From a virus (Duplodnaviria > Heunggongvirae > Uroviricota > Caudoviricetes): 64,000 nt of DNA. The notes beneath the pieces were generated by a model. That model saw only the letters and a list, made by a program, of their open reading frames with translations. It had not been told where the DNA came from and made no database searches. Below are positions 25,977 to 50,182 of the stretch, piece after piece; the first letter of the stretch is position 1, and the number at the start of each line of letters is the position of its first letter. The DNA is taken from the IMG/VR virus record IMGVR_UViG_3300032093_000003; one strand, given 5' to 3'. The position numbers were made by a program, and so were the translations under genes.

Positions 25977-26103
25977 AAGTTTTCCGGGTGATCCGGGGTT
26001 TACCCGTAAAATTCTTTAACATAACATTAACATTCGGGTTGATTGTTTTGGGGTGTATAAGGTGTATATTTGTATATCGTTCACAAGTTAAAACTCTACT
26101 ACT

Positions 26104-26478
26104 ATGTTAAAAAGAACTCTCACACTCGGACTTCATCATTGGACTGACAATGACTTAATCCTGAACTTTTATGTTACCAAATTCGGTACTCGGTACATTC
26201 ATTTGAAAACCGAAGAAGAACTCTCCAAATTCATCGGTACAACTCCTTGTTCGTTTACCAAACAACAGATGAACTTCCGTTACCTTATGGGGTGTAAATC
26301 AAATGTCCTGACTGACTACTCCAAACTTCAAAAGTTGGTGTTTGAAATGTTTGATGAAATCTCCTTCTACGAATTTCATCAAATCGTGAAAAAGATAGTT
26401 GGACAAGATGAATACGAAAGAAATAAATTCTTTGTGGAAAATGGATATAACCCTGAACGAATGATAATGATAAGTTAA
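26104..26478 (+). CDS. hypothetical early protein (no alanine)
   Basis: 124 aa; promoter TATATTTG at 26065-26072. Confidence 0.75.
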   Translation: MLKRTLTLGLHHWTDNDLILNFYVTKFGTRYIHLKTEEELSKFIGTTPCSFTKQQMNFRYLMGCKSNVLTDYSKLQKLVFEMFDEISFYEFHQIVKKIVGQDEYERNKFFVENGYNPERMIMIS

Positions 26479-26498
26479 TCGGGTTGGAAACTGAAACG

Positions 26499-26527
26499 AA
26501 ACCTCAACAGAAATGTTGGGGTTTTTT
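26499..26527 (+). terminator. intrinsic terminator, identical to 29975-30003
   Basis: AAACCTCAACAGAAATGTTGGGGTTTTTT. Confidence 0.85.
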
Positions 26528-26571
26528 ATTTCCCACAGAACTCCGTGTTCACCAGATTCGCTGGTGGTAAA

Positions 26572-26689
26572 TTTCTTTGGCTTGTAGAACCAGTTAGAAG
26601 ATGTGGTTGGGGACACCGCATGCGAAAATATTTCTGTGGCGGTTGTCTTACATAATAGGGGTATTACAGGAGGTTACACGCCAAGGAAA
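26572..26689. repeat. spacer element with two left arms (gap 39)
   Basis: TTTCTTTGGC 26572; TTTCTGTGGC 26631; GCCAAGGAAA 26680. Confidence 0.8.
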
Positions 26690-26809
26690 TTCCATAATCC
26701 CGGATCACCTGTCGTGTCATCGTATTACACATTCACAAAACTTTAACAAAATAAATTTGGATATAAGGGTATAAATTGGTTAACTTTGACGAAACAAACT
26801 TTCAAAGTT

Positions 26810-27091
26810 ATGTCTTACACAAAAGAAGAAATCAAAATGAACTTGTCAAGAAACCCTAAATGGATAGAAAGAGCGTTGGTTGTCTTACATAACCTCCAAA
26901 CTACCGAAGAACAAATCACAAACGAAACAATCAAAGAGAATGGGGTTGGTTTTAATTCATCGGATAGTCGGTATCTCTCCTATTGTGCGAAATGGATAAA
27001 GGGTGGTAATCACTTAAACGAGAAACACCTCACTAAATGTGGTCAGAAACTCCCAAAGTATTGGAAACAAATACACTCAATGATTAAGTAA
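26810..27091 (+). CDS. conserved phage hypothetical protein
   Basis: ERALVVL...QTxEEQ...NGVGFN motif; ATG at 26810. Confidence 0.7.
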   Translation: MSYTKEEIKMNLSRNPKWIERALVVLHNLQTTEEQITNETIKENGVGFNSSDSRYLSYCAKWIKGGNHLNEKHLTKCGQKLPKYWKQIHSMIK

Positions 27092-27180
27092 CTTCACACT
27101 CCACTCAAAACATTAAACCTCCGATAGTATCGGGGGTTTTTTGTTAGAACTCCGTGTTCACCAGATTCGCTGGTAGATAT

Positions 27181-27224
27181 TTTTTGTGGCGGATAGGTAC
27201 AGATTAACCTACTCGCCATGGAAA
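27181..27224. repeat. spacer element (gap 24)
   Basis: TTTTTGTGGC / GCCATGGAAA. Confidence 0.8.
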
Positions 27225-27343
27225 ATTATCCTGATCGCAACAGCGGTTCACGGGGAAAATTCGTTAACAACATTTTAACAATAAAAATTTGGAAATATAA
27301 GGTATAATGTCGTATATTTGATAAACAATTAAAAACTACTACA

Positions 27344-27523
27344 ATGGACAAAATCACTCTCACACTCCTTCTCCTTACACTCGGACTAATGGGGTTAACA
27401 ATGTTATTCTCTCACTATATGAGGAATGACAAAATCTCAAACATTTTTCTTCGTGTTTTATTCGGTTTGACAATGATGACATTCACTCTCTTTATGATGG
27501 ACATTTTTCTCTCAAACATTTAA
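27344..27523 (+). CDS. 59-aa membrane protein
   Basis: MDKITLTLLLLTLG...; two hydrophobic segments; directly after a promoter. Confidence 0.6.
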   Translation: MDKITLTLLLLTLGLMGLTMLFSHYMRNDKISNIFLRVLFGLTMMTFTLFMMDIFLSNI

Positions 27524-27535
27524 TAACTACCAACT

Positions 27536-27874
27536 ATGACACACGAACAACTACACAACTTCGTATCGGAAAAAGGTGAAAGGGAATTTAACCCACAAGA
27601 AACCTTACAAGTATTAACCCACAACAGAACAACATATTGGTCTTGGGGTGTATCTAAACTCCTTAATATGTTTAATAAGGGGTTATGTTTGAAAGTATCA
27701 GGACATCACCACAAAGGTTGGGTAATCATCACACTCGGTTTTACAGACACTTACTCGGTGTTTTATGTATCAAACAATGGTAAAGTCAAAGATGAACAAC
27801 ACTTGGTCTATTTTGACGAACTCACCGAAAGGATAGATGATAAAATCGAACGAATACCGATTTACAAACACTAA
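27536..27874 (+). CDS. hypothetical early protein (no alanine)
   Basis: 112-aa ORF followed by a terminator. Confidence 0.75.
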   Translation: MTHEQLHNFVSEKGEREFNPQETLQVLTHNRTTYWSWGVSKLLNMFNKGLCLKVSGHHHKGWVIITLGFTDTYSVFYVSNNGKVKDEQHLVYFDELTERIDDKIERIPIYKH

Positions 27875-27967
27875 TCACGAAATCGTAATACAGAAACCCT
27901 CGACAAAAGTCGGGGGTTTTTTGTTTTTCCACAGAACTCCGTGTTCACCAGATTCGCTGGTGGTGAA

Positions 27968-28019
27968 TTTATGTGGCGGATCGTATTACAGATAAAGGTG
28001 GTATTACACGCCACATAAA
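27968..28019. repeat. spacer element (gap 32), perfectly complementary variant arms
   Basis: TTTATGTGGC / GCCACATAAA; two GTATTAC copies inside. Confidence 0.85.
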
Positions 28020-28058
28020 TTTTTTGGTTCAGATCCAGGTTTCCACCAGTGAAACTCT

Positions 28059-28114
28059 TTAACAATAGATTAACAAAATAAATTTGGAATATAAGGTTTA
28101 ATGATGTATATTTG
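28059..28114 (+). promoter_or_regulatory. type example of the early promoter: TTAACA-N5-TTAACA, TTTG (-33), TATATTTG (-7); about 25-30 such promoters between 26.0 and 50.7 kb
   Basis: TTAACA at 28059 and 28070; TTTG at 28083; TATATTTG at 28107. Confidence 0.85.
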
Positions 28115-28137
28115 TTAAACAATTAAAACATACTACA

Positions 28138-28392
28138 ATGGACAAAAACAAACTAATTAACAGAATTGAAAACATTGGTTTTCTTCTCGGTTGTTTTATC
28201 GGTTTATTAACACTTATGATGTTGGGGGCGGAACCTACTACTTGGGATGAGGATGGGTTGTACGATTATGAACACCTTTGGGATAAAGGAAATTCGGGTT
28301 GGTATGTTATGTGGACTTGGGTTTGGTCAGTTGTTACTTTGATTGGGTTGATAGTGGTTAGGTCATTCATTAAGAAAAGTTTAACAAAATAA
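28138..28392 (+). CDS. small membrane protein
   Basis: Two hydrophobic segments. Confidence 0.7.
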   Translation: MDKNKLINRIENIGFLLGCFIGLLTLMMLGAEPTTWDEDGLYDYEHLWDKGNSGWYVMWTWVWSVVTLIGLIVVRSFIKKSLTK

Positions 28393-28449
28393 ATTTGGTT
28401 TTACTCGGTATAAGTTGTATATTTGTATAAACAATTAAAAACAAAAATT

Positions 28450-28644
28450 ATGAAAAAGTTTTTCAGTTCTATTCTCGGTTTTCACTTGACAATTATGGTT
28501 GGGTTGGTTGTTATGTTTTACTTCAACAACTTGGAAGATAACTACCTAACAATCATTAACAACATTTTCTTGGTTATGATGTCTTTATCCGTTGTGTTAT
28601 CGGTGGTCTTATGTTACTTTGACAAACGAATTTCTAAAAGATAG
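28450..28644 (+). CDS. small membrane protein
   Basis: ATG at 28450 after its own promoter. Confidence 0.65.
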   Translation: MKKFFSSILGFHLTIMVGLVVMFYFNNLEDNYLTIINNIFLVMMSLSVVLSVVLCYFDKRISKR

Positions 28645-28746
28645 TTGTAGTTTTAATTGTGAACGAAACCACTCCGAAAGGGGTGGTTTTTTTATTTGTG
28701 GTATTACACAAAACTTGAATCGCGGTTCGAGCTGGGATTACACCTT

Positions 28747-28790
28747 TTTCTGTGGCGATCCGTATTACAGAAACCCACTCGCCATAAAAA
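28747..28790. repeat. spacer element (gap 24)
   Basis: TTTCTGTGGC / GCCATAAAAA. Confidence 0.8.
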
Positions 28791-28898
28791 AAGTTTACCA
28801 GGACGACAGGTATGAATATGGTTTTGAAAAATAAATTTGGAATCAAAAAATATAAGTTGTATATTTGTGTATTATCTAACAAATTAAATTTATATCAA

Positions 28899-29240
28899 AT
28901 GAAAGAACAAAATGAATGTAATGGAAAAATGTTTCCGAAAGGTTTTTGGTCAAAGAATGGTAAGCCCACACAAAACGCCTTAATGATGTATTTTGTGTAT
29001 TTGACACATTTACCTGAAAGTTGGAAAAAGAAAGTAGTACACAAACCCTCACTCGAAAAAACACGACAATACTTTGATGTTGATTATGGTATTGAATGTA
29101 TGTTAACTTGGGGGATACAATTTGGTTGTAAAAATTCTAAAACGTCAGATGAAAGACACCACGCAATGTCTTTGGCTTATCACGACGCTTTGGGTATGAT
29201 TGGTCAAGGTTACCGATACACCGAATTGAAAATTAAGTAG
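28899..29240 (+). CDS. hypothetical early protein
   Basis: ATG at 28899 after a promoter; terminator follows. Confidence 0.7.
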   Translation: MKEQNECNGKMFPKGFWSKNGKPTQNALMMYFVYLTHLPESWKKKVVHKPSLEKTRQYFDVDYGIECMLTWGIQFGCKNSKTSDERHHAMSLAYHDALGMIGQGYRYTELKIK

Positions 29241-29340
29241 TGTTTGGTTTTAATTGTGAACGAAAAGTCCTCAACGAAAGTTGGGGATTTTTTTTGTCAA
29301 GTCACAGACCTCCGTGTTCACCAGATTCGCTGGTGGACAT

Positions 29341-29384
29341 TTTTTGTGGCTGATCCTATTAGAGAAACCGACAAGCCATAGAAA
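29341..29384. repeat. spacer element (gap 24)
   Basis: TTTTTGTGGC / GCCATAGAAA. Confidence 0.8.
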
Positions 29385-29493
29385 TTTCAGGATGGAAGGT
29401 GATCCGAATTCACCTTCACAAAATTTTAACAAAAAAAATTTGGAATAAGTATGTATATGTTGTATATTTGTATAAATAATTAAAAAAAACATT

Positions 29494-29631
29494 ATGAAAA
29501 AGATTTATTCAGTTATCGTAGTTATCGTTCTTGTATCATTAACAATGTCCTCTTGTAAAACAAGTGGGTATGGTTGTAAGGGGAAAGAAAGTTGGGGTGG
29601 ATTGATGAAAAGAATTAACAAACCTTATTAG
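29494..29631 (+). CDS. 45-aa lipoprotein
   Basis: MKKIYSVIVVIVLVSLTMSSC lipobox; own promoter and terminator. Confidence 0.65.
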   Translation: MKKIYSVIVVIVLVSLTMSSCKTSGYGCKGKESWGGLMKRINKPY

Positions 29632-29747
29632 TAGTATGGTTGGTTTTAACCCGATGTTTTTACATCGGGTTTTTTATTTTTTTTAACATTTTAGATTTGA
29701 AATATAATATTTATTGTTGTATATTTGTTTAACTAAACCCACTCACT

Positions 29748-29951
29748 ATGAATTTACAATTAAGAACTGAACTAATCGGAAAAAGAATTATGATGATTTT
29801 TATGGATGACCCTCAACCTATTGAACCAAACACAATGGGTACAATTATCGGAGTTGATGGGTTAAATCAATATCAAGTCAAATGGGATAACGGAAGAAGT
29901 TTATCGGTTATACCCGAAGAAGACCAATTCGTCATTATTGACACAGAGTAG
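29748..29951 (+). CDS. small SH3-like (DUF4314-like) protein
   Basis: GTIIGVDG...VKWDNGRSLSVIPEED. Confidence 0.65.
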   Translation: MNLQLRTELIGKRIMMIFMDDPQPIEPNTMGTIIGVDGLNQYQVKWDNGRSLSVIPEEDQFVIIDTE

Positions 29952-30048
29952 TCCGTTCGTTCCCTCATAAAGACAAACCTCAACAGAAATGTTGGGGTTT
30001 TTTGTTTCTCCACAGAACTCCGTGTTCACCATGCTCCCGGTATGTCAT

Positions 30049-30092
30049 TTTCTGTGGCTGATCGTATTACAGGAAGTTAGACGCCAAAGAAA
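30049..30092. repeat. spacer element (gap 24)
   Basis: TTTCTGTGGC / GCCAAAGAAA. Confidence 0.8.
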
Positions 30093-30485
30093 TTTCCAAC
30101 GACCCGGATCAGGAAATCGCCTGTCGGTTATCTTCACAAAGTTTTAACAAAATAAATTTGGAATATAAAGTATAATGATGTATATTTGTTAAACAATTAA
30201 AAACTACTACAATGAAACAAGACAATTCTGACCAATGGATTCAAGGATTAACATTAATAATCTGTTTTATTACACTTGTTATTGTAATCTCCTTAAAGTA
30301 TTATCTAACGGGTGAAATCTAAAATAAATTTGGAATATAATAAATAATACCTTATATTTGTGTTATGAAACAGAAATACGAAAATAGATTTTACAAAATT
30401 TTACTTTTATTTTGGATGATGGTATTCACCTTTGTTTACTTTCAAATAAAATATCAATTAGTTTTCCATTTCTAAAAAACGAAAT

Positions 30486-30638
30486 ATGAAAAATAATTAT
30501 TTAAGTACAATTAAAAGAAAGGAACAAGTACAACAAGGAATGTACGATGGTCGTTTCCGTAGTCGTGTGGTGGTAGATAAGAAGAAGAAAGAAAGTAAAA
30601 ACAAATGTCGTGTTAAACTTAAAATCAATTATGTATGA
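30486..30638 (+). CDS. 50-aa basic protein
   Basis: QGMYDGRFRSRVVVDKKKKE; ATGA overlap with the next ORF. Confidence 0.6.
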   Translation: MKNNYLSTIKRKEQVQQGMYDGRFRSRVVVDKKKKESKNKCRVKLKINYV

Positions 30639-30844
30639 TACTTGAATTACATTCAGTCGGAAGTGTTATTGACACAGAAACACTATTCACATATCCAATG
30701 TTACTAAATGGTGGATATGATAAAAATCAAAATGTCCATATTGACGATGTTGATATAGAGTGGTTTCATAGTTTGTCTGATGAAGATTTTGGAACAATAA
30801 ATGAGTTAATCAATCAAAGAAACATTAAATCGGAAATAGTATGA
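30635..30844 (+). CDS. hypothetical acidic protein
   Basis: 69-aa ORF. Confidence 0.65.
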   Translation: MILELHSVGSVIDTETLFTYPMLLNGGYDKNQNVHIDDVDIEWFHSLSDEDFGTINELINQRNIKSEIV

Positions 30845-31067
30845 ACAGAGATAGACTAAATAAAATTGAAGAAATTGGTTTTCGTATTACAATGATATTG
30901 GTGTTTAGTGTTTTCACTATTTGGTTGATTGGAACGATTGTCAAGTTAATAATGATATTGTCGTCATAGTTTAGGTTTGGTTTTAATTGTGAAGAAATCC
31001 CTCAACGAAAGTTGGGGGATTTTCTTTTGGAGGAACTTGAGTCGTGGTTCACCGTGTCTTCAGGGAT

Positions 31068-31113
31068 TTTTTGTGGCTGATCGTATTCAGGTCAACCTCA
31101 CAAGCCACGGAAA
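31068..31113. repeat. spacer element (gap 26)
   Basis: TTTTTGTGGC / GCCACGGAAA. Confidence 0.8.
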
Positions 31114-31238
31114 TTTGGTAATCCGAATCACCTGTTTTCCTTCAGGAAATCCTTTCACAAATTTTTAACAAATTATTTTTGGAATAAAAATTTATATGGT
31201 GTATATTTGTTATATCATTAACAATTAAAACAAACATT

Positions 31239-31406
31239 ATGAAAAAGTTACTTGGTCTTATCGTTATCGTGGTTTTATTTTCTTCTTGTAGTCATTATGT
31301 AAACGGAGGTGGTGGAGGTTGTGGGGTATGGTATCCTCGTAAATTTGAAAAAACAAAGGTGTTCCCTACTCGAAATCATCCAATGTATCGACACTTCGGA
31401 GGATAG
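31239..31406 (+). CDS. 55-aa lipoprotein, paralog of 32766..32960
   Basis: MKKLLGLIVIVVLFSSC lipobox; GCGVWYPRKFE. Confidence 0.7.
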   Translation: MKKLLGLIVIVVLFSSCSHYVNGGGGGCGVWYPRKFEKTKVFPTRNHPMYRHFGG

Positions 31407-31504
31407 TGTTCTAAATAAACCTATCAATAAAAATCCCTGACAATAGTCGGGGATTTTTTTTTCAAACACAAGAAGATGTGATCCGGATCAGCTCGACCGT
31501 GGAT

Positions 31505-31540
31505 TTTCTCTGGCTCAGGTCAACCTACAAGCCAAAGAAA
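31505..31540. repeat. spacer element (gap 16)
   Basis: TTTCTCTGGC / GCCAAAGAAA. Confidence 0.8.
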
Positions 31541-31676
31541 ATTAATAATCCAGATCCCGTCCCTGAAATTTTAACAAAACTTTAACACAAAATCCTTTAA
31601 CAACATTTTAACAATAAAAATTTGGAAATAGGTAGTAATAAGTTGTATATTTGTATAAACAATTAAAACAAATTTT

Positions 31677-32204
31677 ATGAAACAGAAACAAAGAGTATTT
31701 GTAACAGAAAGAGAGTTGTTAATTATCTTAATGAGTATTGACAAACCTACATTCACTCACATTGTATCTAAAACCAAAGTGAGAATGAATAAAGGTGGTA
31801 ATCCGTATTTTGATAAAGTTACCAAACACTCAAAAGGTAACTACTTCATCGGTGGTAGTTATGAGGATATGGTAAACACTCGTTGTGTGAAAGAGGGTAT
31901 TGAACCTAATTTTGAAAGTCAAGAATGTTCAGTCGGAGAACATATTACCAAGTGTGTTCAGTATAATGAGAACTTACAGAGGTACTATCTTCAATACTTC
32001 ATCTTCCCTACAAGTAACATCAAGAGTGAATTTACCTATGAGGGAGATAGTATTGAGAGAGAGTTGTTCCGTAGTTATGAGGTAAAGAGGTCGGAGAGTT
32101 CAAGACAACCACAAGAGAACAAACACAAACCACAATCGTTTATGGTATCTTCCATTGAGGAAATGACACTAAACGGAACGGAATATGTGGTGGTAGGTAG
32201 ATAA
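31677..32204 (+). CDS. hypothetical protein, paralog of 25143..25664; no alanine
   Basis: Shared motifs; four TTAACA boxes upstream (31571, 31582, 31597, 31608). Confidence 0.8.
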   Translation: MKQKQRVFVTERELLIILMSIDKPTFTHIVSKTKVRMNKGGNPYFDKVTKHSKGNYFIGGSYEDMVNTRCVKEGIEPNFESQECSVGEHITKCVQYNENLQRYYLQYFIFPTSNIKSEFTYEGDSIERELFRSYEVKRSESSRQPQENKHKPQSFMVSSIEEMTLNGTEYVVVGR

Positions 32205-32299
32205 GGTATTACACAACCGAAATATAAGGTAGTCATTTGACTACCTTTTTTTATGTCCATACCTATCCACGAGTCGTAGACAGAAGACGCGTCCGAAAA

Positions 32300-32342
32300 T
32301 TTCTCTGGCGGATCGGTATTCGTATTACAGGAGCCACGGAAA
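32300..32342. repeat. spacer element (gap 23)
   Basis: TTTCTCTGGC / GCCACGGAAA. Confidence 0.8.
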
Positions 32343-32465
32343 TTTCAACATCTCAGTAGACATCTCCTCGTCATCGTTAAATTCATTATGAAAACATTAA
32401 CAGAGATTTTTTGGAGATATAAGGTATTACATAGTATATTTGATAAACAATTAAAAACATATACT

Positions 32466-32687
32466 ATGAACAAAGAAACAATCAAAGTGGTGGTGTGTTA
32501 TTGTAACTCACTTCCCAAAGGTTTTATGACACTTCGGAATTTCTTAAACTTTACAAATCGTTCGTGGTGGGATAGTACCAAAACTATTGAGATACCAAAA
32601 GAGTATTGGGAGAATGTCCACATTGGGAACATAGATAGGTATGTTGAAATGTATGAGAATAACCCTAAGTGGTGGAATGTTGTATAA
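32466..32687 (+). CDS. hypothetical early protein
   Basis: ATG at 32466 after a promoter. Confidence 0.65.
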   Translation: MNKETIKVVVCYCNSLPKGFMTLRNFLNFTNRSWWDSTKTIEIPKEYWENVHIGNIDRYVEMYENNPKWWNVV

Positions 32688-32765
32688 ATTTTAACAAATT
32701 AAATTTGGAATATAAATTTATTTGTTGTATATTTGTTCTATCATTAACAATTAAAACAATACATT

Positions 32766-32960: not shown

Positions 32961-33000
32961 AAAAAAATTCTTATCTTCGTTAAACCTTAAATCAATTTTT

Positions 33001-33183: not shown

Positions 33184-33279
33184 TCACTTACCTTTGATAA
33201 CAAAGTCCTCAACGAAAGTTGGGGATTTTTTTTGTCCAAAACCCAAGAAGATGTGATCCGGATCAGCTCCATCCGGGAT

Positions 33280-33322
33280 TTTACGTGGCAGATCGGTATT
33301 CGTATTACAGAAGCCACAAAAA
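33280..33322. repeat. spacer element (gap 23)
   Basis: TTTACGTGGC / GCCACAAAAA. Confidence 0.8.
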
Positions 33323-33446
33323 TTCCACTTCAGGACGACAGGTATGATTCTGATTTTTATTTTAACACTTTTTAACAAAAATAAATTTGGAGTGGAATTG
33401 TATATGTTGTATATTCGTGTATTGTTAAACAATTAAAACTAAACGT

Positions 33447-33671
33447 ATGACAAACTTACAAAGAATTGGTAATTGGTATTCAGTTACAATTAATGATACT
33501 AACTACAATGTCCTTATTCAAAAAGATGATAATAAGGTTACTTGTGAACCTTCCTCAATTATTGTATTTGACGAAGATTTCAAAGAGGTTGACAAACCAA
33601 GTGTGTATGATGATATGATAAGTATATTTGAAAAAGTTGACTTCAAATACGATATGATTGATGATGATTAA
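33447..33671 (+). CDS. hypothetical acidic protein
   Basis: 74-aa ORF after a promoter. Confidence 0.65.
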   Translation: MTNLQRIGNWYSVTINDTNYNVLIQKDDNKVTCEPSSIIVFDEDFKEVDKPSVYDDMISIFEKVDFKYDMIDDD

Positions 33672-33754
33672 CTAATCTTTAACAAAATAAATTTGGAATG
33701 AAAGTTTATATCGTGTATATTTGTGTATTGTTAAACAATTAAAATTAAAAACAA

Positions 33755-34226: not shown

Positions 34227-34405
34227 TTTCTGGATGGAAGGATGCTCCTTCAGAAAATAAAATTTGTTAATAGTTTTTAACAAAATAAATTTGGAATAGG
34301 GGTGTATAAGTTGTATATTTGTGTTATGAAGAAACTAAAACCTTACATATTTCCGATTATATTGGTTATGTATGTTTTAATTAAAACATTCTTCAAACAT
34401 TAATT

Positions 34406-35222: not shown

Positions 35223-35311
35223 TTTTAACAAAGGTTTAACAATAAATATTTGGAAATATAAGATTTTATTTCGTATATTTGTTCTATCAATAACAATTAA
35301 AAATTATTTTT

Positions 35312-35530: not shown

Positions 35531-35656
35531 TCAAAAAGTAACTTAACCCCCGATATTTCGGGGGTTTTTGTTTTAACAAAATTTTAAGAAAATAAATTTG
35601 GATTGTGTTTGTATAATTTGTATATTTGATTATCATTAACAATTAAATTTACAATT

Positions 35657-35944
35657 ATGAAAAAGTTATTTGTAATATCATTTGTTGTTTTTCTTTTCAG
35701 TTGTTCAGTTCAAAAAGAGTGTAATGTGAAATTTAACCTTTCAAATTTAGATATTGACTTAAAAGATAGTGTTAATATAAAAGTAGAAAGAATTGTTTAT
35801 ACATATCTCGGAAATTTTGTTAGGGGTACTAATAATGTTTGGTATCGTCATCGTGGAATAGTTGATTTTAAGGTTGGTGATAGTGTTGTAGTTTTTAATG
35901 AGTTCAAAACTTTACCTCCTTGTCCTCGTGAGTGGGGGTTTTAA
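35657..35944 (+). CDS. 95-aa lipoprotein
   Basis: MKKLFVISFVVFLFSC lipobox. Confidence 0.7.
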   Translation: MKKLFVISFVVFLFSCSVQKECNVKFNLSNLDIDLKDSVNIKVERIVYTYLGNFVRGTNNVWYRHRGIVDFKVGDSVVVFNEFKTLPPCPREWGF

Positions 35945-36025
35945 GAAAACATTAACAAAATAAATTTGGAATATAAAATTTATTGTTGTATATTTGTGTA
36001 ACATTAACAATTAAAACAAAACACA

Positions 36026-36765: not shown

Positions 36766-37029
36766 AATTACCATCCTGAGTCAGCATTTTCCTTCAGAAA
36801 AACATTAACAAATTTTAACAAATTAAATTTGGAATAAAACTATATTAGTTGTATATTTGTATAAATTAAATTGTATGGAACAAACAATTAAAAAAGAAAA
36901 GAAAAAAAGTGAACCGAAGTATTTTACGGATGAAGATGCGAAAAATGTATTTGTTTTTCAAGAACCATATAAAACAAGTGTAAAAGGTAAACCTATTCAA
37001 AAATCAATATCATTAAAATTTCGTAAACG

Positions 37030-37604: not shown

Positions 37605-37735
37605 ATTTTCCTGATCCGGATCACCTCCTCCTTCAGTAAATTCATTAAGAAAACTTTAACATAAATTATTTGGAAATATAAACAAAATAGATTTATATTT
37701 GTGTACTATCTCACTAACTATTAAACTCAAAAAAA

Positions 37736-38565: not shown

Positions 38566-38683
38566 ATTTTACAGTATTTGGGCTGGGGTCGTGATCCGAT
38601 CCTTTAACAAAAGATTAACGTAAATTATTTGGAAATAAAACTATAATAGTTGTATATTTGTGAAACAATTAAAAACAAATATT

Positions 38684-40019: not shown

Positions 40020-40142
40020 TTTCAGATGACGCCGGGCTAAAAAGTTCGTAGCCCAGATCATAAAACACATTAACAAAAGATTAGCACAAATTATTTGGAA
40101 ATAGAACTATAATAGTTGTATATTTGTATAAATTAAAACATT

Positions 40143-41349: not shown

Positions 41350-41466
41350 ATTTTCCTGATCCCGGACATCTTTTTCTTCAGAAATCCTTTAACAAAAGAT
41401 TAGCACAAATTATTTGGAAATAGAACTATAATAGTTGTATATTTGTCTAAACAAAAACAAATCACA

Positions 41467-42029: not shown

Positions 42030-42238
42030 GAACAATAACAATTCATATCATTGATAGAGATAGTTCACGAACTATGAGTGAAAGTATCAGGGTTGATGGT
42101 GTTAAACCGATAGACCTTGAAAACAATATTGTTAAATTACTTTCCGATGTTCCTTTCCGTAAATACTATATGGAAACTGAAACAAGTGATGAATTAACAA
42201 AGGAAGAATTGGAAGTTATTGAAAGGATCATTAACTAA
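42026..42238 (+). CDS. hypothetical protein
   Basis: 70-aa ORF. Confidence 0.6.
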   Translation: MRTITIHIIDRDSSRTMSESIRVDGVKPIDLENNIVKLLSDVPFRKYYMETETSDELTKEELEVIERIIN

Positions 42239-42433
42239 ATTTTAACAAAAATTATTTGGAAATAGAAAGTATTACATTGTATATTTGTAAAAAAATCGTA
42301 TGACACTACAAGAATTAAAAGAACAACTACAAGAAGATTTAATCTCACACTTGGAGGAATTAATCTCACAAGAAGATTTAGACATCGTTTGTAATATAGT
42401 AATCAATAATGTTAATCAATTAAAACAATAACA

Positions 42434-42982
42434 ATGGGAGCAACAGATTTCAGAACAACAAAAAGAGGTTGGTCAATGTCCGAAGCGTATGACACCGCAG
42501 TTGAATATGCGAGAGACGAATATGGAAACGATGGTTACAACGGAACAATATCCACAACTCGTGGGGTTATTGATAAGACCTCAATGTTTAAGTCATCAAA
42601 ACTTTCTATTGATGAATTTATTAACAAACATATTGATAGTTGTCAGAAGTGGGGTTCGGCTTGGGGAGTATGTATTGAAGAACCGACACAAAATAAATCT
42701 AAGATAAAATCTAAGGTTACAAACATTGTAAGTAAGGGAACGAAGAAATGGGAGTTGGTTTATGATGTGATTGTTCGTGGAGATAGTGTTAAGTCATTCA
42801 ATAGTAAGAACGATGCGGTTAAACATGGTCGTGATTTGGTTGAGAAGAGTAAAGGAAGAGTATCAATAGAAATGAGGAAGAAACTTGTTAATGGTAACAC
42901 AAGGGTTGCGGAGATCGAATATAAAACCGATGGAAAAGAAAAAGAGGGTAAGTATGTTTTCTTCGGAATTGCAGCATGTTAA
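42434..42982 (+). CDS. conserved phage hypothetical protein
   Basis: EYGNDGYNGTIST...KW motif. Confidence 0.75.
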   Translation: MGATDFRTTKRGWSMSEAYDTAVEYARDEYGNDGYNGTISTTRGVIDKTSMFKSSKLSIDEFINKHIDSCQKWGSAWGVCIEEPTQNKSKIKSKVTNIVSKGTKKWELVYDVIVRGDSVKSFNSKNDAVKHGRDLVEKSKGRVSIEMRKKLVNGNTRVAEIEYKTDGKEKEGKYVFFGIAAC

Positions 42983-43085
42983 CAAAACTTTAAGAAAATA
43001 AATTTGGAAAACTAATATAATAGTTATATCTTTGTTACTCATTACTAATCTAACTCGGGGACAGGAGTTCTGAACAAATTATCTT

Positions 43086-43829: not shown

Positions 43830-43923
43830 GTTAGATAGTAAGTGTGAACAAAGACCACTCCGAAAGGGGTGGTTTTTTTTGTTACGAACTCAGAATCTGC
43901 GGTCCTGAAGACGACGGGGAAAT

Positions 43924-43933
43924 TTTCTGTGGC
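43924..43933. repeat. half spacer element (left arm only)
   Basis: TTTCTGTGGCAGGATC between terminator and promoter. Confidence 0.7.
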
Positions 43934-44015
43934 AGGATCAAACTCTTTAACAAAACATTATGAAAATAAATTTGGAAATAGAAAGTATTATATTGTATAT
44001 TTGAAAAAAAACATT

Positions 44016-44426
44016 ATGATTGAAATGATTAAATCGGAATTGAAGTGGAGAGGAAAAGAAACCTACTCAATAGAAGAAATTATTGAAGTCATTGAGAAGT
44101 ATAATAAAAAAGAAGAAACTCATAGAGTTGAAAGTTGTGGGTTTGTTGCCGATATGGAAACCAGACAAATAACTATTGACGATAAAAAACACAACCTACC
44201 AAAAAAAGAATTTTTGATTATTCATTACCTTATGGAAAATAAAAACAAGGTATTGAATAGAGATAAGATACTAAATAAAATTTGGGAAGATGATGTGATT
44301 GTAATAAACAGAACTATTGATGTTCACATCAGGAGAATTAGAAATAAATTTCCAACAATTCCAATTAGAACAATTAAGGGAGTTGGATATACTTGGAGTG
44401 ATAGAGAGACTTTAACAAATGTTTAA
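44016..44426 (+). CDS. OmpR/PhoB-type winged-helix DNA-binding protein lacking a receiver domain
   Basis: LPKKEFLIIHYL...LNRDKILNKIWEDDVIVINRTIDVHIRRIRNKF...IRTIKGVGY; ATG at 44016 after a promoter. Confidence 0.85.
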   Translation: MIEMIKSELKWRGKETYSIEEIIEVIEKYNKKEETHRVESCGFVADMETRQITIDDKKHNLPKKEFLIIHYLMENKNKVLNRDKILNKIWEDDVIVINRTIDVHIRRIRNKFPTIPIRTIKGVGYTWSDRETLTNV

Positions 44427-44482
44427 CATAAATTATTTGGAGGTATAATGTTTTAAGTTGTATATTTGTAAAAATTAAAATT

Positions 44483-44713
44483 ATGGTAACTTTACACGAA
44501 GAAAAATTTATGGACTATAAAATCGGTTTAGCCGGTTCGTTCAAACAATCACTTTACGAAACCTTTTTCAAAGGAGATACGGAGAACAGAAAGAAGTTAA
44601 TGTCTGTTTTTCCCGAACTTGAAGTCGCTCAAAGATACGCCTCCGAAAGTGGTTATTGGAAAGGACTTGTGGAGAGATATAATAAACAATACAACACAAA
44701 CTATAACCCATAA
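44483..44713 (+). CDS. hypothetical protein
   Basis: 76-aa ORF; promoter with TTAACA at 44412 and 44423. Confidence 0.7.
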   Translation: MVTLHEEKFMDYKIGLAGSFKQSLYETFFKGDTENRKKLMSVFPELEVAQRYASESGYWKGLVERYNKQYNTNYNP

Positions 44714-44879
44714 AATAATATGCCAACAAGAGAACAAACAGACAAAGTTTTCACTGAATTGATAAGTTTATATGACATCGCCGATGAACTTGAAAACAAT
44801 GGCGAAGAAGAAAAATCAATCGAAATGAGAATTAAACTCAACATTATCGGACAATTTATTCAATCATTAATAAAATAAA

Positions 44880-46471
44880 ATGAAATCACAACAAGTTTTT
44901 ATTGTAATGTACAATGACCGATATGGTAACGGAGACCAGAAGAAAATAGAGGTGGTATTAAAAGATGAAAAAGATTTTAAGAAGTGGTTGAAGAACCATA
45001 ACTACGATAGGGATGCAGAACCCGAAACAAAAGAAGAATTTGATTTAATTCCAGTTAACCTTTTAACTTTTGATTAACGATTATTATATTATCTTTACAA
45101 ATAAAAAAAATTGTATGACAACACAACAATTCAACGAGAAGTACAAAGATTACTTGGAGGAAGGACACTATGGTTTAGCCATAGGTGCTGGAGAATTTGT
45201 AGAATGGTTAGATAAAAAGTTTGAGGACTTTGTTAAGAAACCCGGTTTTAGATTTACACAGATTAAAGCGAAATTCGGTTATGGTAGATTTTACGCCGAA
45301 GGTTTAACAAGTGATGAAGTTCGTGAAGTGGAACAGAGAATTACAGATTTACATTCAGGTACAAAATTAGAATTTTAATTATGGCAAGAGTATCAAAATT
45401 AGCACAAAGACAAACCTATTCAAACGGACATCAAATTTGTGTTGGATTGACTGGTGATATTGGTTATATATCTATTGAAGATAATAACCTTTATCCCGAA
45501 GGTGATAGTCGAGCAGATAGAAGGGATATGAATTTTAATAGGATAATGGTTCCCGTTATGACAAGGGAAGACCTTAAAGATTTACAGACCGCTATTGGTG
45601 AAGTATTAAAAAACTCAAAATAATGTCATACACAATAGATAAAATAATTCCAGTCAAATACGAATGGGATGATAAATGGACGGTAACCGCAGATCTTCGT
45701 GGACTTGAAACCTTTGAGAACTGCGAAAGTAATTATGATGTGGTTGAAAGATTAAAAGATAATAATGTCCTTTCAAGTAAAACTAGTGAGGATAGTGAAT
45801 ATTGTCAATTCTTTGCATATTTCAGTACAAAGAAAGCGGCAGAGAACTTTATCAAAAGATTAGGAACTTATATTGAAAAAAGAAAAAAATTAATATCATC
45901 TTTGTAATATGGAAATTTTAACATTTAGAGAATGGAGTGAGAACTTTGTAAAAGTTATCTTTGATTTAGAGGGTGGAGTAGAAATCAAATCATTTAACAA
46001 AACAATTCTTAAAGTAAAAACCCCAAAGATTGTTAATGGTTTGTTAGAAGAACAAAGTAAAATGTTGTTGAAACATTACACCGATAACTTTGATAAAATA
46101 CAAAGTCAGTATCAAGAATTATTAAACGAAGTTATATGACCGCACACCACATAGCAAAAGTTGTTCAAAGTCAATTCGATAAAGTAGATTTCGACGCCAT
46201 CATTGATAAGTGGAAACACATTAAAAGAGAGGATTGTGGTAGAGTATCAGATGAATGGGTTAATACAAGGATTGATGATAAACAATACTATAAGTGGATG
46301 AGGGCGTGTTCCTTATTAGAGGAACATATTAAAAGGAACTTTGAAACCTTTGAAGAAACTGAATTGGTTTATACTTGGGCGAAAGACCTTTGTATTCAAA
46401 AGAACAATGAATTAAATAGGTGGCGTCAGTTTGGTGCGTATCAAACATTTTCTCAATTTAGAAAGAGATAA
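44880..46471 (+). other. run of small hypothetical CDS (44880..45077, 45115..45378, 45381..45623, 45623..45907, 45909..46139, 46136..46471)
   Basis: Abutting ORFs on + ending at a terminator near 46500-46525. Confidence 0.65.
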
Positions 46472-46566
46472 TATGAGAAACCTAATCTGTACCTTTTTAA
46501 CCCCGACATAATGTTGGGGTTTTTTGTTGCTTGAACTTTGCTGGTCCTGTGCGCAACAGGTGAGAT

Positions 46567-46601
46567 ATTCTGTGGCAGACTAAACACACTCGCCACAGAA
46601 A
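46567..46601. repeat. spacer element (gap 15)
   Basis: ATTCTGTGGC / GCCACAGAAA. Confidence 0.85.
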
Positions 46602-46745
46602 TTTCAGATGACCGGGGTCAGGACAGTTTCAGGGTAAAACTATTTATATCTGTTAAGAAAATTTTAACAAAATAAATTTGGAAATACAAAGAAATAAGTT
46701 GTATATTTGTAATGTCATTTAATTATTAACTCAAAACTTTTTCAA

Positions 46746-47015
46746 ATGAAAAGTAAAGTAAAAAAACAAAAACACACCCTACTCAAAGGAGAGGGAGCAA
46801 ACCAACACACTCTTTACGGAGAGTTTAAGATTGATGAAGAAAAGTCCTTTGCAACATTGGAAGTAACAAAGGATAGTGTATTAAAACACGAACAACCTGA
46901 CGGAAGTTTCTCAAACGAACATCAAGCCTTAAAGATTGACAAAGGTAATTGGGTTATGGGAAAACAAGTTGAGTACAATCCGTTTTCTCGTTCAGTAAGT
47001 CAAGTTTGGGACTAA
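46746..47015 (+). CDS. conserved small protein, first gene of a 4-gene operon
   Basis: GEGANQH, LKHE...EH and QVEYNPF motifs. Confidence 0.7.
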   Translation: MKSKVKKQKHTLLKGEGANQHTLYGEFKIDEEKSFATLEVTKDSVLKHEQPDGSFSNEHQALKIDKGNWVMGKQVEYNPFSRSVSQVWD

Positions 47016-47041
47016 TTTATTCACACACTAAATCAACTCAA

Positions 47042-47446
47042 ATGGCAAATCCGTTAATTCATTCTAAATCCAGTGTTAAACGCTGGGGTGGAAAGGTAGA
47101 AGATTATTTACCTATTCACGAACTTATTGATAGTCCAAAAATGACTATGAATAATAATAGTGCGAGGTTACTTACTCACAATACCTGGTTCGCATACCAC
47201 ATTGTTCCGAAAATCTTTGGTTACAACATTGTTAATTCTGACGGAAAGTCCGTTGATGTTGTAGATATTGCGATGTTACATATTGCAGAAGATTTCCGAA
47301 TGAAGTTTGTACCGACACCACAGGACTATCTTAAACATTTAGAAGTCCAACCCTGGATGAATAATGGAGTTAAGCCCGTTGATAATCCCGAAGCGTACGA
47401 AATTGTTAAAAACTTAAATCAAAAATTACACGATTATGCAAACTAA
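47042..47446 (+). CDS. DUF6915-like protein
   Basis: MANPLIHSKSSVKRWGG..EDYLPIH and HIAEDF motifs. Confidence 0.65.
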   Translation: MANPLIHSKSSVKRWGGKVEDYLPIHELIDSPKMTMNNNSARLLTHNTWFAYHIVPKIFGYNIVNSDGKSVDVVDIAMLHIAEDFRMKFVPTPQDYLKHLEVQPWMNNGVKPVDNPEAYEIVKNLNQKLHDYAN

Positions 47447-48116
47447 TGAAGCAGTAAAACTCTGGAAGGAGTTAGGTATTACACACGCAAATATGGAGTT
47501 CAGTTGTGGTGGAGATAGTATGAATGACTACCACTTTACTTTCTACAAGAAAAACGATAGTAAGAAAAAGAATGTCCCCGAAGAAATTGAGGTTAATAGT
47601 CCCGAATTGGAAAGTTACTTTGACAAAGAAGTGTTTGATGAAGTTGAGTTTTATGTAAACTCTGACGGACACTACATTGGGGAGCACGGAAATGTTTATA
47701 TTGAATTAGATGATAGTGATGAAGATGAAGAAGAACATACTTTCATTTATTCAAAAAGTGCCAAAAGTGAGTGGTCGGAGAGAATTGAAGAAACAATGGA
47801 AATCAAATTATCAAAGAAGATGTCTAAATTTGTTTCGGAGTATGTTAGTAACATTAACGGAGAAGAAGGGAATTGTACTATCAATTTCAAAAAAGATTTC
47901 ATAATGTCTGACGAACAAGAAAAGTTGGTGGGAGAATTGGAAGAAATTGTATTACAAGAAACCGCAGACTTTGAGCCTTCCTATGATGAAGGGGAGAAAG
48001 AAGATTACTATACTTTCACAACAAATGACGGAGATGATAGAGAAGAATTAACTATCAAAGATGATAAGTTGTTGGTATCTGTTGGAACTTCGTTTATCAT
48101 TTACAAAGAAGATTAA
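47436..48116 (+). CDS. DUF6878-like acidic protein
   Basis: GITHANMEFSCGGDS motif. Confidence 0.55.
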   Translation: MQTNEAVKLWKELGITHANMEFSCGGDSMNDYHFTFYKKNDSKKKNVPEEIEVNSPELESYFDKEVFDEVEFYVNSDGHYIGEHGNVYIELDDSDEDEEEHTFIYSKSAKSEWSERIEETMEIKLSKKMSKFVSEYVSNINGEEGNCTINFKKDFIMSDEQEKLVGELEEIVLQETADFEPSYDEGEKEDYYTFTTNDGDDREELTIKDDKLLVSVGTSFIIYKED

Positions 48117-48144
48117 ATTATTAACAAATTAAATTAAATCAGTT

Positions 48145-48816
48145 ATGCAAATCGTTATCAATAATTTACAATTTCCGTATGACATTGGTTGTCGTATTTT
48201 GAAAGTGAAACACAAAGATTGTCCTTTCAGTCAGTTGGAAGATATTTGGGAAGATATTACCCCGATTACTTTCAAAGAGATAGCCCAATTAGAGAACTTG
48301 GAACAACGCCGTGTGGCTATGTTGAACTATGGGTTAGATAGATTGGTCAAAGAGATTAAACCCGAATTGATTGATAAGAAAACATTGAAGAAAACAACAA
48401 CTTGGGTTAGTCAAGACGGACAACTTGTTACCAAAAAATTCAATGACACTTATGAACTTTACAAAGTTAATGGGGAAGTTTTCGGTAAGGCTCGTAATTC
48501 TTGGTCAAAACCTGATGATTGTTACTATGTAAAGTGTAAGGACACAAGTACCGACAGAGAGTATTTCATTTGGGTTGATATGAAAAGTGTGGCAAACACA
48601 AATGGTCAGGGTTGGAATTGGGATATTAAAAAGGTCAATGCAATTCAGGCAATTGCTTGGACTATTCAAACGGACATTCCCGAAGGTTGTATTGAGAAGA
48701 TTGTAAGACAGGGAGATTGTGTGTTGATTAAACCGATAGGGAAGAAAGTAAAGTCGGAAAGTACAAGACACTTAACGGAAAGTGAGTACAAAAATCTGTT
48801 GGTCGCTGAGAGTTAG
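48145..48816 (+). CDS. DUF6745-like protein
   Basis: ENLEQRRVAM, VKCKDTSTDREY and AIAWT motifs. Confidence 0.55.
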   Translation: MQIVINNLQFPYDIGCRILKVKHKDCPFSQLEDIWEDITPITFKEIAQLENLEQRRVAMLNYGLDRLVKEIKPELIDKKTLKKTTTWVSQDGQLVTKKFNDTYELYKVNGEVFGKARNSWSKPDDCYYVKCKDTSTDREYFIWVDMKSVANTNGQGWNWDIKKVNAIQAIAWTIQTDIPEGCIEKIVRQGDCVLIKPIGKKVKSESTRHLTESEYKNLLVAES

Positions 48817-48905
48817 TAGTTTTTGACAAATGAAAGGGGGTACAATTAGTACCCCTTTTTTTATGCACTTTTTGTGCACTCGATCTGCATATTAACAGGT
48901 GAGAT

Positions 48906-48940
48906 TTTCTGTGGCGGATCAACTATACTCGCCACAGAAA
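48906..48940. repeat. spacer element (gap 15), 13-bp perfect inverted repeat
   Basis: ATTTTCTGTGGCG / CGCCACAGAAAAT. Confidence 0.9.
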
Positions 48941-49050
48941 ATTCTTGGTTCAGATCCTGAAATTTTTAGATATAATATCTTAACTAAACTTTAACGAAAA
49001 TAAATTTGGAATCAAAATATATAAGTTGTATATTTGTAAAAATTAAAATT

Positions 49051-49815
49051 ATGATTTACACAACTAAAGCTCAAGCAAAAAAATTAACGGGTATCGGTTA
49101 CCTGGGGTCGGTTAACTTAACTACCAAACATCAGAAGGCGTACAAGTACAATGAACTTACTTATAGTTTATACCTCGCACCCGCAAAGTCAAGTGGTTAT
49201 GAGGTTTGTCCTATGAGAAGTGAAGAATGTACATTGCTATGTTTGAACGAATCGGGAATGAATAAAATGACACAGAAGGTAAAGGGTGATGTTATTAATG
49301 AATCTAGAATTAAAAAAACGAAATTATTCTTTGAACACAGGGAATTTTTTGTTAATTGGATGATAGATGAAATATACACCGCAAAGAAAAAGGCAGATAA
49401 ACTCGGTCACAAGTTCAGTGTTCGTTTAAACAATACATCAGATATAACCCCCGAAAGTTTTTATGTGACATATAAAGGAGAAGTGAGAAATGTATTACAG
49501 ATTTTCCCCGATGTTAAATTTTACGATTACACGAAAGTTCCGAAACGAATTGAATTGTTAAAGAAGTACAATAACTACGATTTAACATTTTCATTTAGTG
49601 GATATAACTTTCCCGATTGTATTAGTATGTTGAATAATGATGTTAGAGTGGCGGTCGTATTTAGAAAAGAATTACCCGAAACTTTCTGGGGTCGTAAAGT
49701 TATTGACGGGGATGAATACGATATGAGATACTACGATGAAAAAAATGTTATTGTAGGTTTGAAATATAAAAGTGTTAGAAACAAGTTAAAGGATGATTAC
49801 AAGTTCGTTGTTTAG
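49051..49815 (+). CDS. Gp88-like protein (Cys-cluster, radical-SAM-like)
   Basis: VCP...CTLLCLNESG, RLNNTSD, FYDYTK and DGDEYDMR motifs. Confidence 0.75.
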   Translation: MIYTTKAQAKKLTGIGYLGSVNLTTKHQKAYKYNELTYSLYLAPAKSSGYEVCPMRSEECTLLCLNESGMNKMTQKVKGDVINESRIKKTKLFFEHREFFVNWMIDEIYTAKKKADKLGHKFSVRLNNTSDITPESFYVTYKGEVRNVLQIFPDVKFYDYTKVPKRIELLKKYNNYDLTFSFSGYNFPDCISMLNNDVRVAVVFRKELPETFWGRKVIDGDEYDMRYYDEKNVIVGLKYKSVRNKLKDDYKFVV

Positions 49816-49906
49816 TAGTTTTTGTTTTGATAGAGAACCCACCAGTAAAATGGTGGGTTTTTTATTGCTGTTACCAGAGCAGATCGCAGCGCAAAGCACA
49901 GTGGAA

Positions 49907-50049
49907 TTTCTGTGGCAGAATAGTTTTATTGATTATCAATGAGTTATGAAAATAGCAAAAGTTGCAAAAGTTGCAGCAACACCAGAGCAAGTTGCCAGAT
50001 TCAGAGCTATGGATTTTCTGTGGCAGACATTTGTATTACGCCACAGAAT
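49907..50049. repeat. spacer element with two left arms (gap 15)
   Basis: TTTCTGTGGC at 49907 and 50015; GCCACAGAAT at 50040. Confidence 0.85.
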
Positions 50050-50182
50050 ATTTTTACCGTGCCGGGCTGGGGTCGTGATCAAAAATATTTTTGCAAAATT
50101 TTAACAAAATATATTTGGATTATAACTTTATCCGTTGTATATTTGTGATGTCATTAATTATTAAACTCTAAATTTTATTAAC

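Follow-up and report, generated by a model that had tools for sequence, protein, structure and literature searches.

A putative host Pho box set in fixed register ahead of most host-type promoters of a large phage, probably of Bacteroidota, and a phage-encoded PhoB-type protein without a receiver

The use of host Pho boxes by phages is already known. Host PhoB binds three phage promoter fragments of cyanophage S-PM2d, and in cyanophages 7 of 14 induced genes have a putative Pho box, these boxes being degenerate (PMC10976474). In phages of Alphaproteobacteria, binding sites of the response regulator CtrA are concentrated in promoters and have evolved in several phage lineages (PMC9437464). Here we analyze a stretch of 64,000 nucleotides (the window; GC content ~30-37%), corresponding to bases 115,786-179,785 of the IMG/VR virus record IMGVR_UViG_3300032093_000003 (286,785 bp, completeness estimate 86%). 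In it a direct repeat of the type TTAACA-N5-TTAACA, termed the box, is found upstream of most host-type promoters of an array of small genes, one of which encodes an OmpR/PhoB-type winged-helix protein that lacks a receiver domain. We predict that the box is probably a Pho box, which would be read by a PhoB/PhoP-like regulator of the OmpR family in the host and is fused in fixed register to most phage promoters of the host sigma-A type. What is new here is the scale and rigidity of the wiring, the candidate mimic of the regulator encoded by the phage, and a co-occurrence test that works in both directions.

The cyanophage boxes (pstS/phoA of P-SSM2; S-PM2d) resemble this case in that a T4-like aquatic phage carries the direct repeat of a host phosphate regulator, with a TTAA core and an 11-bp period, before its own genes. 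They differ in that few genes are concerned there, whereas here a near-consensus box in a single register is found at 23-28 of the 33 host-type promoters. Moreover, at least 114 viral stretches share the architecture described here, the host probably belongs to the phylum Bacteroidota, and the phage contains a copy of the regulator's DNA-binding domain. The CtrA sites are likewise sites of a host response regulator which, in phage promoters, report the physiological state of the host; the signal is the cell cycle there and would be phosphate here, and only here is there a single rigid register with the core promoter. Searches of the open-access literature turned up no report of Pho boxes in phages of Bacteroidota, nor of a phage gene for a PhoB-type protein without a receiver, and a megablast search with 10 kb against GenBank phages gave no match. 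Another parallel is T4, in which many small genes have strong early promoters for host sigma, with conserved sequence 5' of the element equivalent to -35 and, in many cases, a terminator behind the gene, and in which promoters and early stem-loops form mobile cassettes. Both phages have a one-strand array of small genes with their own host-sigma promoters and, often, terminators; the upstream element of T4, however, is an A-tract UP element, whereas here it appears to be an operator also found at host phosphate genes. If the analogy with T4 holds, the cassette promoters would constitute an early class that is active first in infection.

We defined promoters by the Bacteroidota core alone (TTTG-N19-21-TAnnTTTG) and left the box out of the definition, because circularity was to be avoided. 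Over the genome, 35 core promoters are found on the + strand in the bins from 140 to 170 kb, and a sparser cluster lies in the tRNA region at 77-89 kb. Elements matching the host consensus at -33 and -7 are almost limited to this tRNA region and to a block at 26.7-51.3 kb of the window. A change in the sign of the GC skew near 25 kb corresponds to the switch from leftward genes to the rightward array of small genes. The block holds 33 core promoters: 23 have both hexamers with at least 5 of 6 positions matching, 5 have one and 5 have none. A unit of ~90 bp, comprising box, -33, spacer, -7 and leader, is similar from cassette to cassette. Six host-type promoters in the tRNA/GOLLD region of the same phage, in contrast, are all without a box, which is therefore the mark of one promoter class.

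The pattern TT(A/C)A(C/G)A-N5-TT(A/C)A(C/G)A is matched exactly by 19 sites of the window, every one of them on the + strand (25734 to 46669), compared to a mean of 0.64 and a maximum of 4 in dinucleotide-preserving shuffles. Extended by N7 and TTTG, it is matched 16 times in the whole 286,785-bp record, always in the window and on the + strand, and never in the reversed control. The gap from box to TTTG is 7 bp at 27 of the 28 boxed promoters and 8 bp at 48980, and the box, which occupies about -45 to -61, is 31 nt away from the -7 element. The hexamers have a period of 11 bp, or of 10 bp at 29696, 32704, 34267 and 36805; another 10-bp-period box, at 33362, is outside the set of 33 promoters. 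Information content is highest on the hexamers, the proximal one exceeding the distal one, and falls in the 5-bp spacer and the flanks. The box itself is A/T-rich and is separated from the -33 element by an A-tract, AAATAAA. Thus, the phage boxes have the layout by which a Pho box is recognized, namely hexamer or heptamer direct repeats with a period of 10-11 bp at a fixed distance from the core promoter. An earlier note on this stretch had described a TTMASA-N5-TTMASA repeat, mostly with an 11-bp and in a few cases with a 10-bp period, about 7 bp before the -33 TTTG of some 25 promoters, and these counts bear it out. The ten positions that it gave as examples all carry a box, but the one at 26016 has no canonical -33/-7 pair behind it. 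The array and its boxes are as follows.

26732-50106, + strand: array of ~33 promoter-gene(-terminator) cassettes with host-type promoters (-33 TTTG, -7 TAnnTTTG), 23 with a full and 5 with a partial box
26732-26748, + strand: box TTCACA-N5-TTAACA, 7 bp 5' of TTTG
27264-27280, + strand: box TTAACA-N5-TTAACA
28059-28075, + strand: box TTAACA-N5-TTAACA
28370-28386, + strand: box TTAAGA-N5-TTAACA
29415-29431, + strand: box TTCACA-N5-TTAACA
30133-30149, + strand: box TTCACA-N5-TTAACA
31154-31170, + strand: box TTCACA-N5-TTAACA
31571-31613, + strand: tandem pair of boxes (31571-31587 and 31597-31613) 5' of the promoter of the open reading frame (ORF) 31677-32204
32386-32402, + strand: partial box TTATGA-N5-TTAACA
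33362-33377, + strand: 10-bp-period box; the promoter behind it has the -7 element TATATTCG
33668-33684, + strand: box TTAACT-N5-TTAACA
34267-34282, + strand: 10-bp-period box TTAATA-N4-TTAACA
35225-35241, + strand: box TTAACA-N5-TTAACA
35573-35589, + strand: box TTAACA-N5-TTAAGA
35941-35957, + strand: box TTAAGA-N5-TTAACA
36805-36820, + strand: 10-bp-period box TTAACA-N4-TTAACA
37645-37661, + strand: box TTAAGA-N5-TTAACA
38604-38620, + strand: box TTAACA-N5-TTAACG
40070-40086, + strand: box TTAACA-N5-TTAGCA
41389-41405, + strand: box TTAACA-N5-TTAGCA
42231-42247, + strand: box TTAACT-N5-TTAACA
42979-42995, + strand: box TTAACA-N5-TTAAGA
43947-44006, + strand: promoter of the winged-helix gene, with box TTAACA-N5-TTATGA (43947-43963, proximal hexamer degenerate), TTTG at 43971 and -7 element TATATTTG
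44412-44428, + strand: box TTAACA-N5-TTAACA, overlapping the 3' end of the winged-helix gene and serving the following cassette
46653-46669, + strand: box TTAAGA-N5-TTAACA
48980-48996, + strand: box TTAACT-N5-TTAACG, 8 bp 5' of TTTG
50090-50106, + strand: partial box TTTGCA-N5-TTAACA

The nearest full-length relatives of the phage winged-helix protein are 231-amino-acid regulators of Aquirufa and other freshwater Cytophagaceae (42-55% identity over the domain), and host genomes of Aquirufa (three species), Flectobacillus and Arcicella were entered via the gene of this regulator. Aquirufa has no other protein close to the phage one, the second-ranking homologue being 31% identical. The promoter of a phosphate transporter of the PHO4/Pit type (Pfam, 8e-87) has a box site whose conservation extends over the three Aquirufa species and Flectobacillus. 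Among 30 genomes of the Aquirufa family, a box matching at 11 or more of 12 positions is present within 270 nt upstream at 27 of 30 PHO4 loci, in 18 cases as a perfect match, compared to 2 of 816 control windows. The consensus of these host boxes is TTAACAATTTCTTAACA, located 20-22 nt ahead of TAcTTTTG; the phage register is one helical turn upstream of this position. At a TonB-receptor gene of two Aquirufa species, the box lies 31 nt from -7, which is identical to the phage geometry. The gene of the regulator itself is preceded, at 21 loci of a Spirosomaceae-type clade, by TTAACA-ATTTn-GTAAYA ending 10 nt before -7, a site that its more distant homologues lack. As judged from the sequence, this layout matches that of a classic autoregulated pho box. 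From one register to the next (10, 20-22 and 31 nt from -7) the shift is roughly a turn of the helix, and the regulator would therefore face the polymerase from the same side in all three. Thus, in the host lineage the box is found both upstream of phosphate-acquisition genes and upstream of the regulator gene.

Beyond this lineage, unrelated genomes of a phylum-wide sample have the identical 17-mer 5' of a Porin_O_P phosphate-selective porin gene (2.9e-32), of PHO4-like membrane-protein genes (three genomes) and of a TonB receptor gene; in the five Flavobacteriales/Bacteroidales genomes that were examined, PHO4 was not a regular feature. On the scale of whole genomes, the strict box is enriched in Flectobacillus (16 vs 1 in the reversed control) and weakly so in Arcicella (9 vs 4). 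A TTAACAAAAAATTAACA box is conserved 5' of a MarR-family regulator gene in Arcicella (L096) and Flectobacillus (L104), and this 17-mer was found again in several genomes of the phylum sample; the host regulon may therefore extend beyond phosphate uptake.

A scan of IMG/VR with TTAACA-N5-TTAACA-N7-TTTGG recovered at least 114 viral stretches, many of them on contigs of 165-335 kb. Box, 7-bp gap and TTTGG are common to the matching stretches, while the -33/-7 spacer, the -7 variant (TAcTTTAG) and the leader differ. The eight near-complete phage records in which sites were counted have 5-28 boxes each, on a single strand, and no control hits. Of 28 box-using records searched with a profile of the winged-helix family, however, just one has a homologue, and the 10 records with a completeness of 90% or more have none. 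The reverse case is provided by three fragments, L009 (20.4 kb), L295 and L297, which encode the winged-helix protein and have 9-24 promoters without an upstream box. The box is thus used by phages without the gene, and the gene is borne by fragments without the box; therefore, the phage protein cannot be a general reader of the box. Only the subclade of the present phage (G000, G029, L011/L012 and L296) combines box and gene. In this subclade the box spacer is AAA(T/C)T, whereas it is ATTTC in gene-less phages (13 of 19) and in host PHO4 boxes (14 of 27). The 7-bp gap differs in the same manner, being AAATAAA in the gene-bearing subclade and TTAAAAR in gene-less phages (G006-G017) and host loci (L262-L291). 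The difference in the spacer amounts to a single evolutionary event and is therefore a lead, not evidence.

These sequence comparisons suggest that the host regulator is the likely reader of the box and the phage protein an accessory mimic. The earlier note had proposed that the regulon is wired either to a host regulator, possibly one for phosphate, or to the phage's own mimic. Of these options the host regulator and its link to phosphate genes are favoured, the latter through the suggested search for the box at host pho genes (27 of 30 PHO4 loci), whereas the mimic as a general reader does not (0 of 10 phages). The promoters of L009, L295 and L297 have the form AAAATAAA-TTTG-GTnG-GTAACA/GTTTCA-AAAA..-TATATTTG. 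Their single GTAACA-like half-site is placed 10 nt before -7, in the register of the proximal half-site in the promoter of the host regulator's own gene.

The gene of the phage winged-helix protein is set off from the ORF upstream of it by a terminator and a promoter, the latter already listed above.

43855-43880, + strand: terminator-like hairpin and T-run closing the cassette 5' of the winged-helix gene (read from the sequence)
44016-44426, + strand: receiver-less OmpR/PhoB-type effector-domain protein, 136 amino acids, ATG to TAA, consisting of a two-helix hairpin (residues 2-30) and a winged-helix DNA-binding domain (37-127)

The protein matches the Pfam family Trans_reg_C (PF00486) with 72.6 bits (cut-off 26.2, E = 2.8e-20) and has no hit to the receiver domain (Response_reg, PF00072). 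It thus lacks the N-terminal receiver with a phospho-acceptor Asp of a response regulator, and ahead of the effector domain has 36 residues predicted by AlphaFold2 to form a two-helix hairpin. This agrees with the earlier description of the ORF as an OmpR/PhoB DNA-binding domain with about 35 extra residues and no receiver. The AlphaFold2 model (pLDDT, the predicted local distance difference test, of 83) has strands at 37-60, helices at 63-74, 82-90 and 99-111 and a hairpin wing at 117-127, and contains all parts of the OmpR/PhoB effector fold: a four-strand N-terminal sheet, three helices including the recognition helix, and a C-terminal wing. Its top Foldseek hit is 1gxp_A, the PhoB effector domain on pho-box DNA (E = 9.5e-9, TM 0.83, root-mean-square deviation 1.8 A). 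The best NCBIfam match of the protein is the Bacteroidota PhoB model NF053854 (5.6e-23), and in the PDB the sequences of RegX3 and of the PhoB DNA-binding domain come out best. The phage protein and host regulators hardly differ in recognition helix and wing, with R99, T100, D102, V103, H104, R106, K121, G124 and Y125 invariant; we take these residues to be the counterparts of the base-contacting residues of PhoB in 1gxp. As the best structural match, the Escherichia coli PhoB effector domain (1gxp; 3t72 with sigma region 4) leads us to expect tandem head-to-tail binding on 11-bp repeats. The two systems differ in sequence (30% identity), in the half-site (TTAACA in the phage, CTGTCA in E. coli), in the 36-residue helical hairpin that stands in place of the receiver, and in the box, which in the phage does not take the place of the -33 element but is located 5' of an intact one. 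The hairpin might be a dimerization module substituting for the receiver; a prediction of self-association with two copies (alignment A2) scored 0.10 against a mark of 0.42, which is uninformative either way.

A scan of viral contigs for exact peptides of the single phage protein recovered no relatives, whereas the protein database yielded a family of 13 receiver-less proteins, all of 124-136 amino acids and on phage-like contigs, frequently in the gene order DUF932 gene, one gene, winged-helix gene. A phylogeny against Bacteroidota regulators had been suggested with the original observation; in a tree of the DNA-binding domain, built on 94 columns only, the 13 phage-type proteins form one clade (support 95/91) that lies outside the sampled cellular regulators. 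On this sequence evidence the single clade would fit one old capture. In related phage fragments, small proteins with a Sigma70_r2 domain are encoded within the same early-type arrays as the winged-helix gene (L009:4637-5263 and L294:8853-9302).

If the box is a host Pho box, the phosphorylated host regulator would bind the two hexamers as a tandem pair in a phosphorus-starved cell. Bound in this way, it would stimulate RNA polymerase at promoters whose -33/-7 elements are good in themselves, and the early cassettes would be strongly expressed in the physiological state that is commonest in fresh water. The phage protein is made from a box promoter and therefore cannot act at time zero. With the recognition-helix and wing residues of the host regulator retained, it most likely binds the same boxes, at phage and host Pho genes alike, without phosphorylation. 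It would be an early-expressed accessory of one phage subclade and could serve as an activator, as a repressor for early shut-off or as a competitor of the host regulator. A more far-reaching version, which we put forward as a tentative possibility, is that the 136-amino-acid protein is a phosphorylation-independent viral mimic of PhoB that switches on or takes over the phosphate-uptake regulon of the host and drives or times the early promoters of the phage. The AAA(T/C)T boxes would then have co-evolved with it, and the wider clade of large aquatic Bacteroidota phages would sense phosphorus status via host Pho boxes.

A number of observations weigh against the box being a Pho box of the host. 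The spacer of the boxes in the present subclade, AAA(T/C)T, is not the ATTTC of the host, and these boxes are therefore not perfect copies of the host Pho box. In whole genomes of Aquirufa, neither the strict nor a degenerate box is enriched over the reversed control, and the case there thus rests on conserved orthologous positions. The host regulator scores below the cut-offs of the NCBIfam PhoB equivalogs TIGR02154 and NF053854 (219.6 vs 296.2 and 207 vs 270, respectively), although PhoB models are still its top hits. It has no adjacent kinase in Aquirufa and is an orphan; its neighbours in Aquirufa nivalisilvae are a glycosyl-hydrolase-like gene and an unrelated LytTR system, not a PhoR or pst-phoU context. 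Moreover, a PhoU domain was not found in the four candidate host genomes (G001, G002, G004 and G005; Aquirufa, Flectobacillus and Arcicella). In view of the scores and the missing kinase and PhoU, we call the protein a PhoB-like regulator with a phosphate-uptake regulon and not a certified PhoB. Phosphate sensing may be wired unusually in the Aquirufa family.

The isolated effector domain of PhoB is constitutively active, binding and activating without phosphorylation. For a regulator from Bacteroidota the picture is different. PhoP of Riemerella anatipestifer, for which DNA affinity purification sequencing gave a motif with TTTAACA as its most conserved nucleotides, shifts a phoPR promoter fragment in electrophoretic mobility shift assays and is autoregulated, and such assays were also run on promoter fragments of TonB-receptor and outer-membrane beta-barrel genes (PMC9603813). 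The phoPR and moxR probes of that study contain TTAACA repeats with a 10-11-bp period, and to this extent the experiment agrees with our reading of the box. However, the isolated DNA-binding domain of this PhoP did not bind DNA in the mobility shift assay, and its regulon was interpreted as one of aerotolerance and virulence, not of phosphate, with a motif resembling that of E. coli ArcA (PMC9603813). The first of these results weakens the assumption that a receiver-less domain binds. Riemerella PhoP, an OmpR-family regulator from Bacteroidota with a TTTAACA core, is likened to the Aquirufa regulator by family and motif; its regulon, unlike that of the phage, is cellular.

Four other explanations have to be weighed against a host Pho box. 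On one of them, the box would be a UP-type element of general use, contacted by the C-terminal domains of the alpha subunits of RNA polymerase (alpha-CTDs), which boosts promoters without any regulator or link to phosphate; this is disfavoured and seems unlikely to us. Two alpha-CTD subsites one turn apart would indeed lie at about -45 to -61, the A/T-rich box is followed by an A-tract beside -33, and papers on the Bacteroides phage promoter P_BfP1E6 speak of 'UP elements'. A general booster of strong promoters, however, is hardly compatible with only 0-15 strict boxes per host genome, barely over the reversed control, or with three host registers, some of which overlap or replace the -33 element. 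Moreover, the host boxes are concentrated on phosphate-uptake genes, a conserved C at fixed positions points to base-specific reading, and the tRNA-region promoters of the same phage do without the box. Nor does it seem credible that the box is functionless and conserved only because whole promoter cassettes are copied within the genome, as are the mobile cassettes of T4-type phages, which we hold to be highly improbable. The ~90-bp unit is similar among cassettes, but conservation within it is much stronger on the hexamers than in the 5-bp spacer or the flanks, and distant phages keep box, 7-bp gap and TTTGG even though the -33/-7 spacer, the -7 variant and the leader differ.

The remaining two explanations assign the box to another reader. 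In the gene-bearing subclade, the phage's own winged-helix protein could be the main reader, in a positive feedback or an early shut-off for which the host regulator is irrelevant. The position of its gene inside the array and under a box promoter would suit such a circuit, as would the spacer AAA(T/C)T of the subclade, which is never ATTTC, and the fact that the protein family is one old phage clade. Yet a protein made from a box promoter would have to be carried in the virion to be present at time zero, the gene is missing from all 10 near-complete box-using phages, the three gene-bearing fragments mentioned above have box-less promoters, and the spacer difference, being one event, is possibly drift; we consider this circuit quite unlikely. 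The reader could also be a phage-encoded or virion-delivered factor common to the box-using phages, with the likeness to a Pho box being a coincidence or a mimicry that serves, for example, to titrate the host regulator. T4-type phages inject proteins that modify early transcription (Alt), box promoters of conserved geometry are present in many large phages, and 23-28 sites per genome copy could be a sink for the host regulator. However, no candidate for such a factor was identified, and the 17-mer of the gene-less phages equals the host PHO4 box letter for letter, spacer included, for which the same reader is the simplest explanation. A factor of this kind is therefore very unlikely in our view, and a Pho box of the host remains the reading that we prefer.

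Growth is phosphorus-limited in most fresh waters and in many marine ones, and Bacteroidota and their phages are major inhabitants there. Should the host Pho box hold across the clade of 165-335-kb phages, the start of infection would be coupled to the nutrient state of the host at the level of transcription initiation, and this far more pervasively than by the few Pho-box genes of cyanophages. The receiver-less PhoB-type domain would then be a new viral regulatory hijack, in which a phage uses the output domain of a two-component system in constitutive form. For the hosts, the analysis provides a clean and little-described candidate Pho-box consensus of Cytophagales, TTAACAATTTCTTAACA, 20-22 nt before -7, and the rigid box promoters could be used as phosphate-responsive parts in Bacteroidota genetics.

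Outside the window, the phage encodes a PhoH-family protein (G000:C1:46620-47231; Pfam, 2.5e-64); a PstS-type binding protein was not found in the phage. Between cassettes, a short GC-rich word, TTCTGTGGCG (variant TTCGTGGCG), is repeated beside hairpins at ~25790, 25900, 43915-43925 and 50060-50075 of the window and is probably part of a repeated inter-cassette element. A leader word, AACAATTAAAAC, is conserved 10-13 nt 5' of the ATG of many cassette genes in the window at 26.8-50.2 kb (e.g., 27325-27340, 28118-28133 and 31215-31232), and some of its copies contain a TTAACA-like word. We considered it as a third, downstream operator and rejected this: its distance to the ATG is constant (10-13 nt), whereas that to the promoter's -7 element varies (3-11 nt), and it therefore looks like a signal for translation initiation or in the mRNA, not one for transcription. 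Finally, boxes are also present at the divergence point of the leftward genes and the rightward array.

25734-26032, + strand: three boxes (25734, 25841 and 26016) at the divergence point, with no canonical + strand -33/-7 pair behind them

A host-type promoter directed leftward is found here on the minus strand, at 25650-25760 of the window, with TTTG at ~25720, the -7 element TATATTTG and the leader word AACAATTAAAAC. Relative to this promoter the box at 25734-25750 is inverted and lies 13 nt 5' of its TTTG, the sole inverted case.

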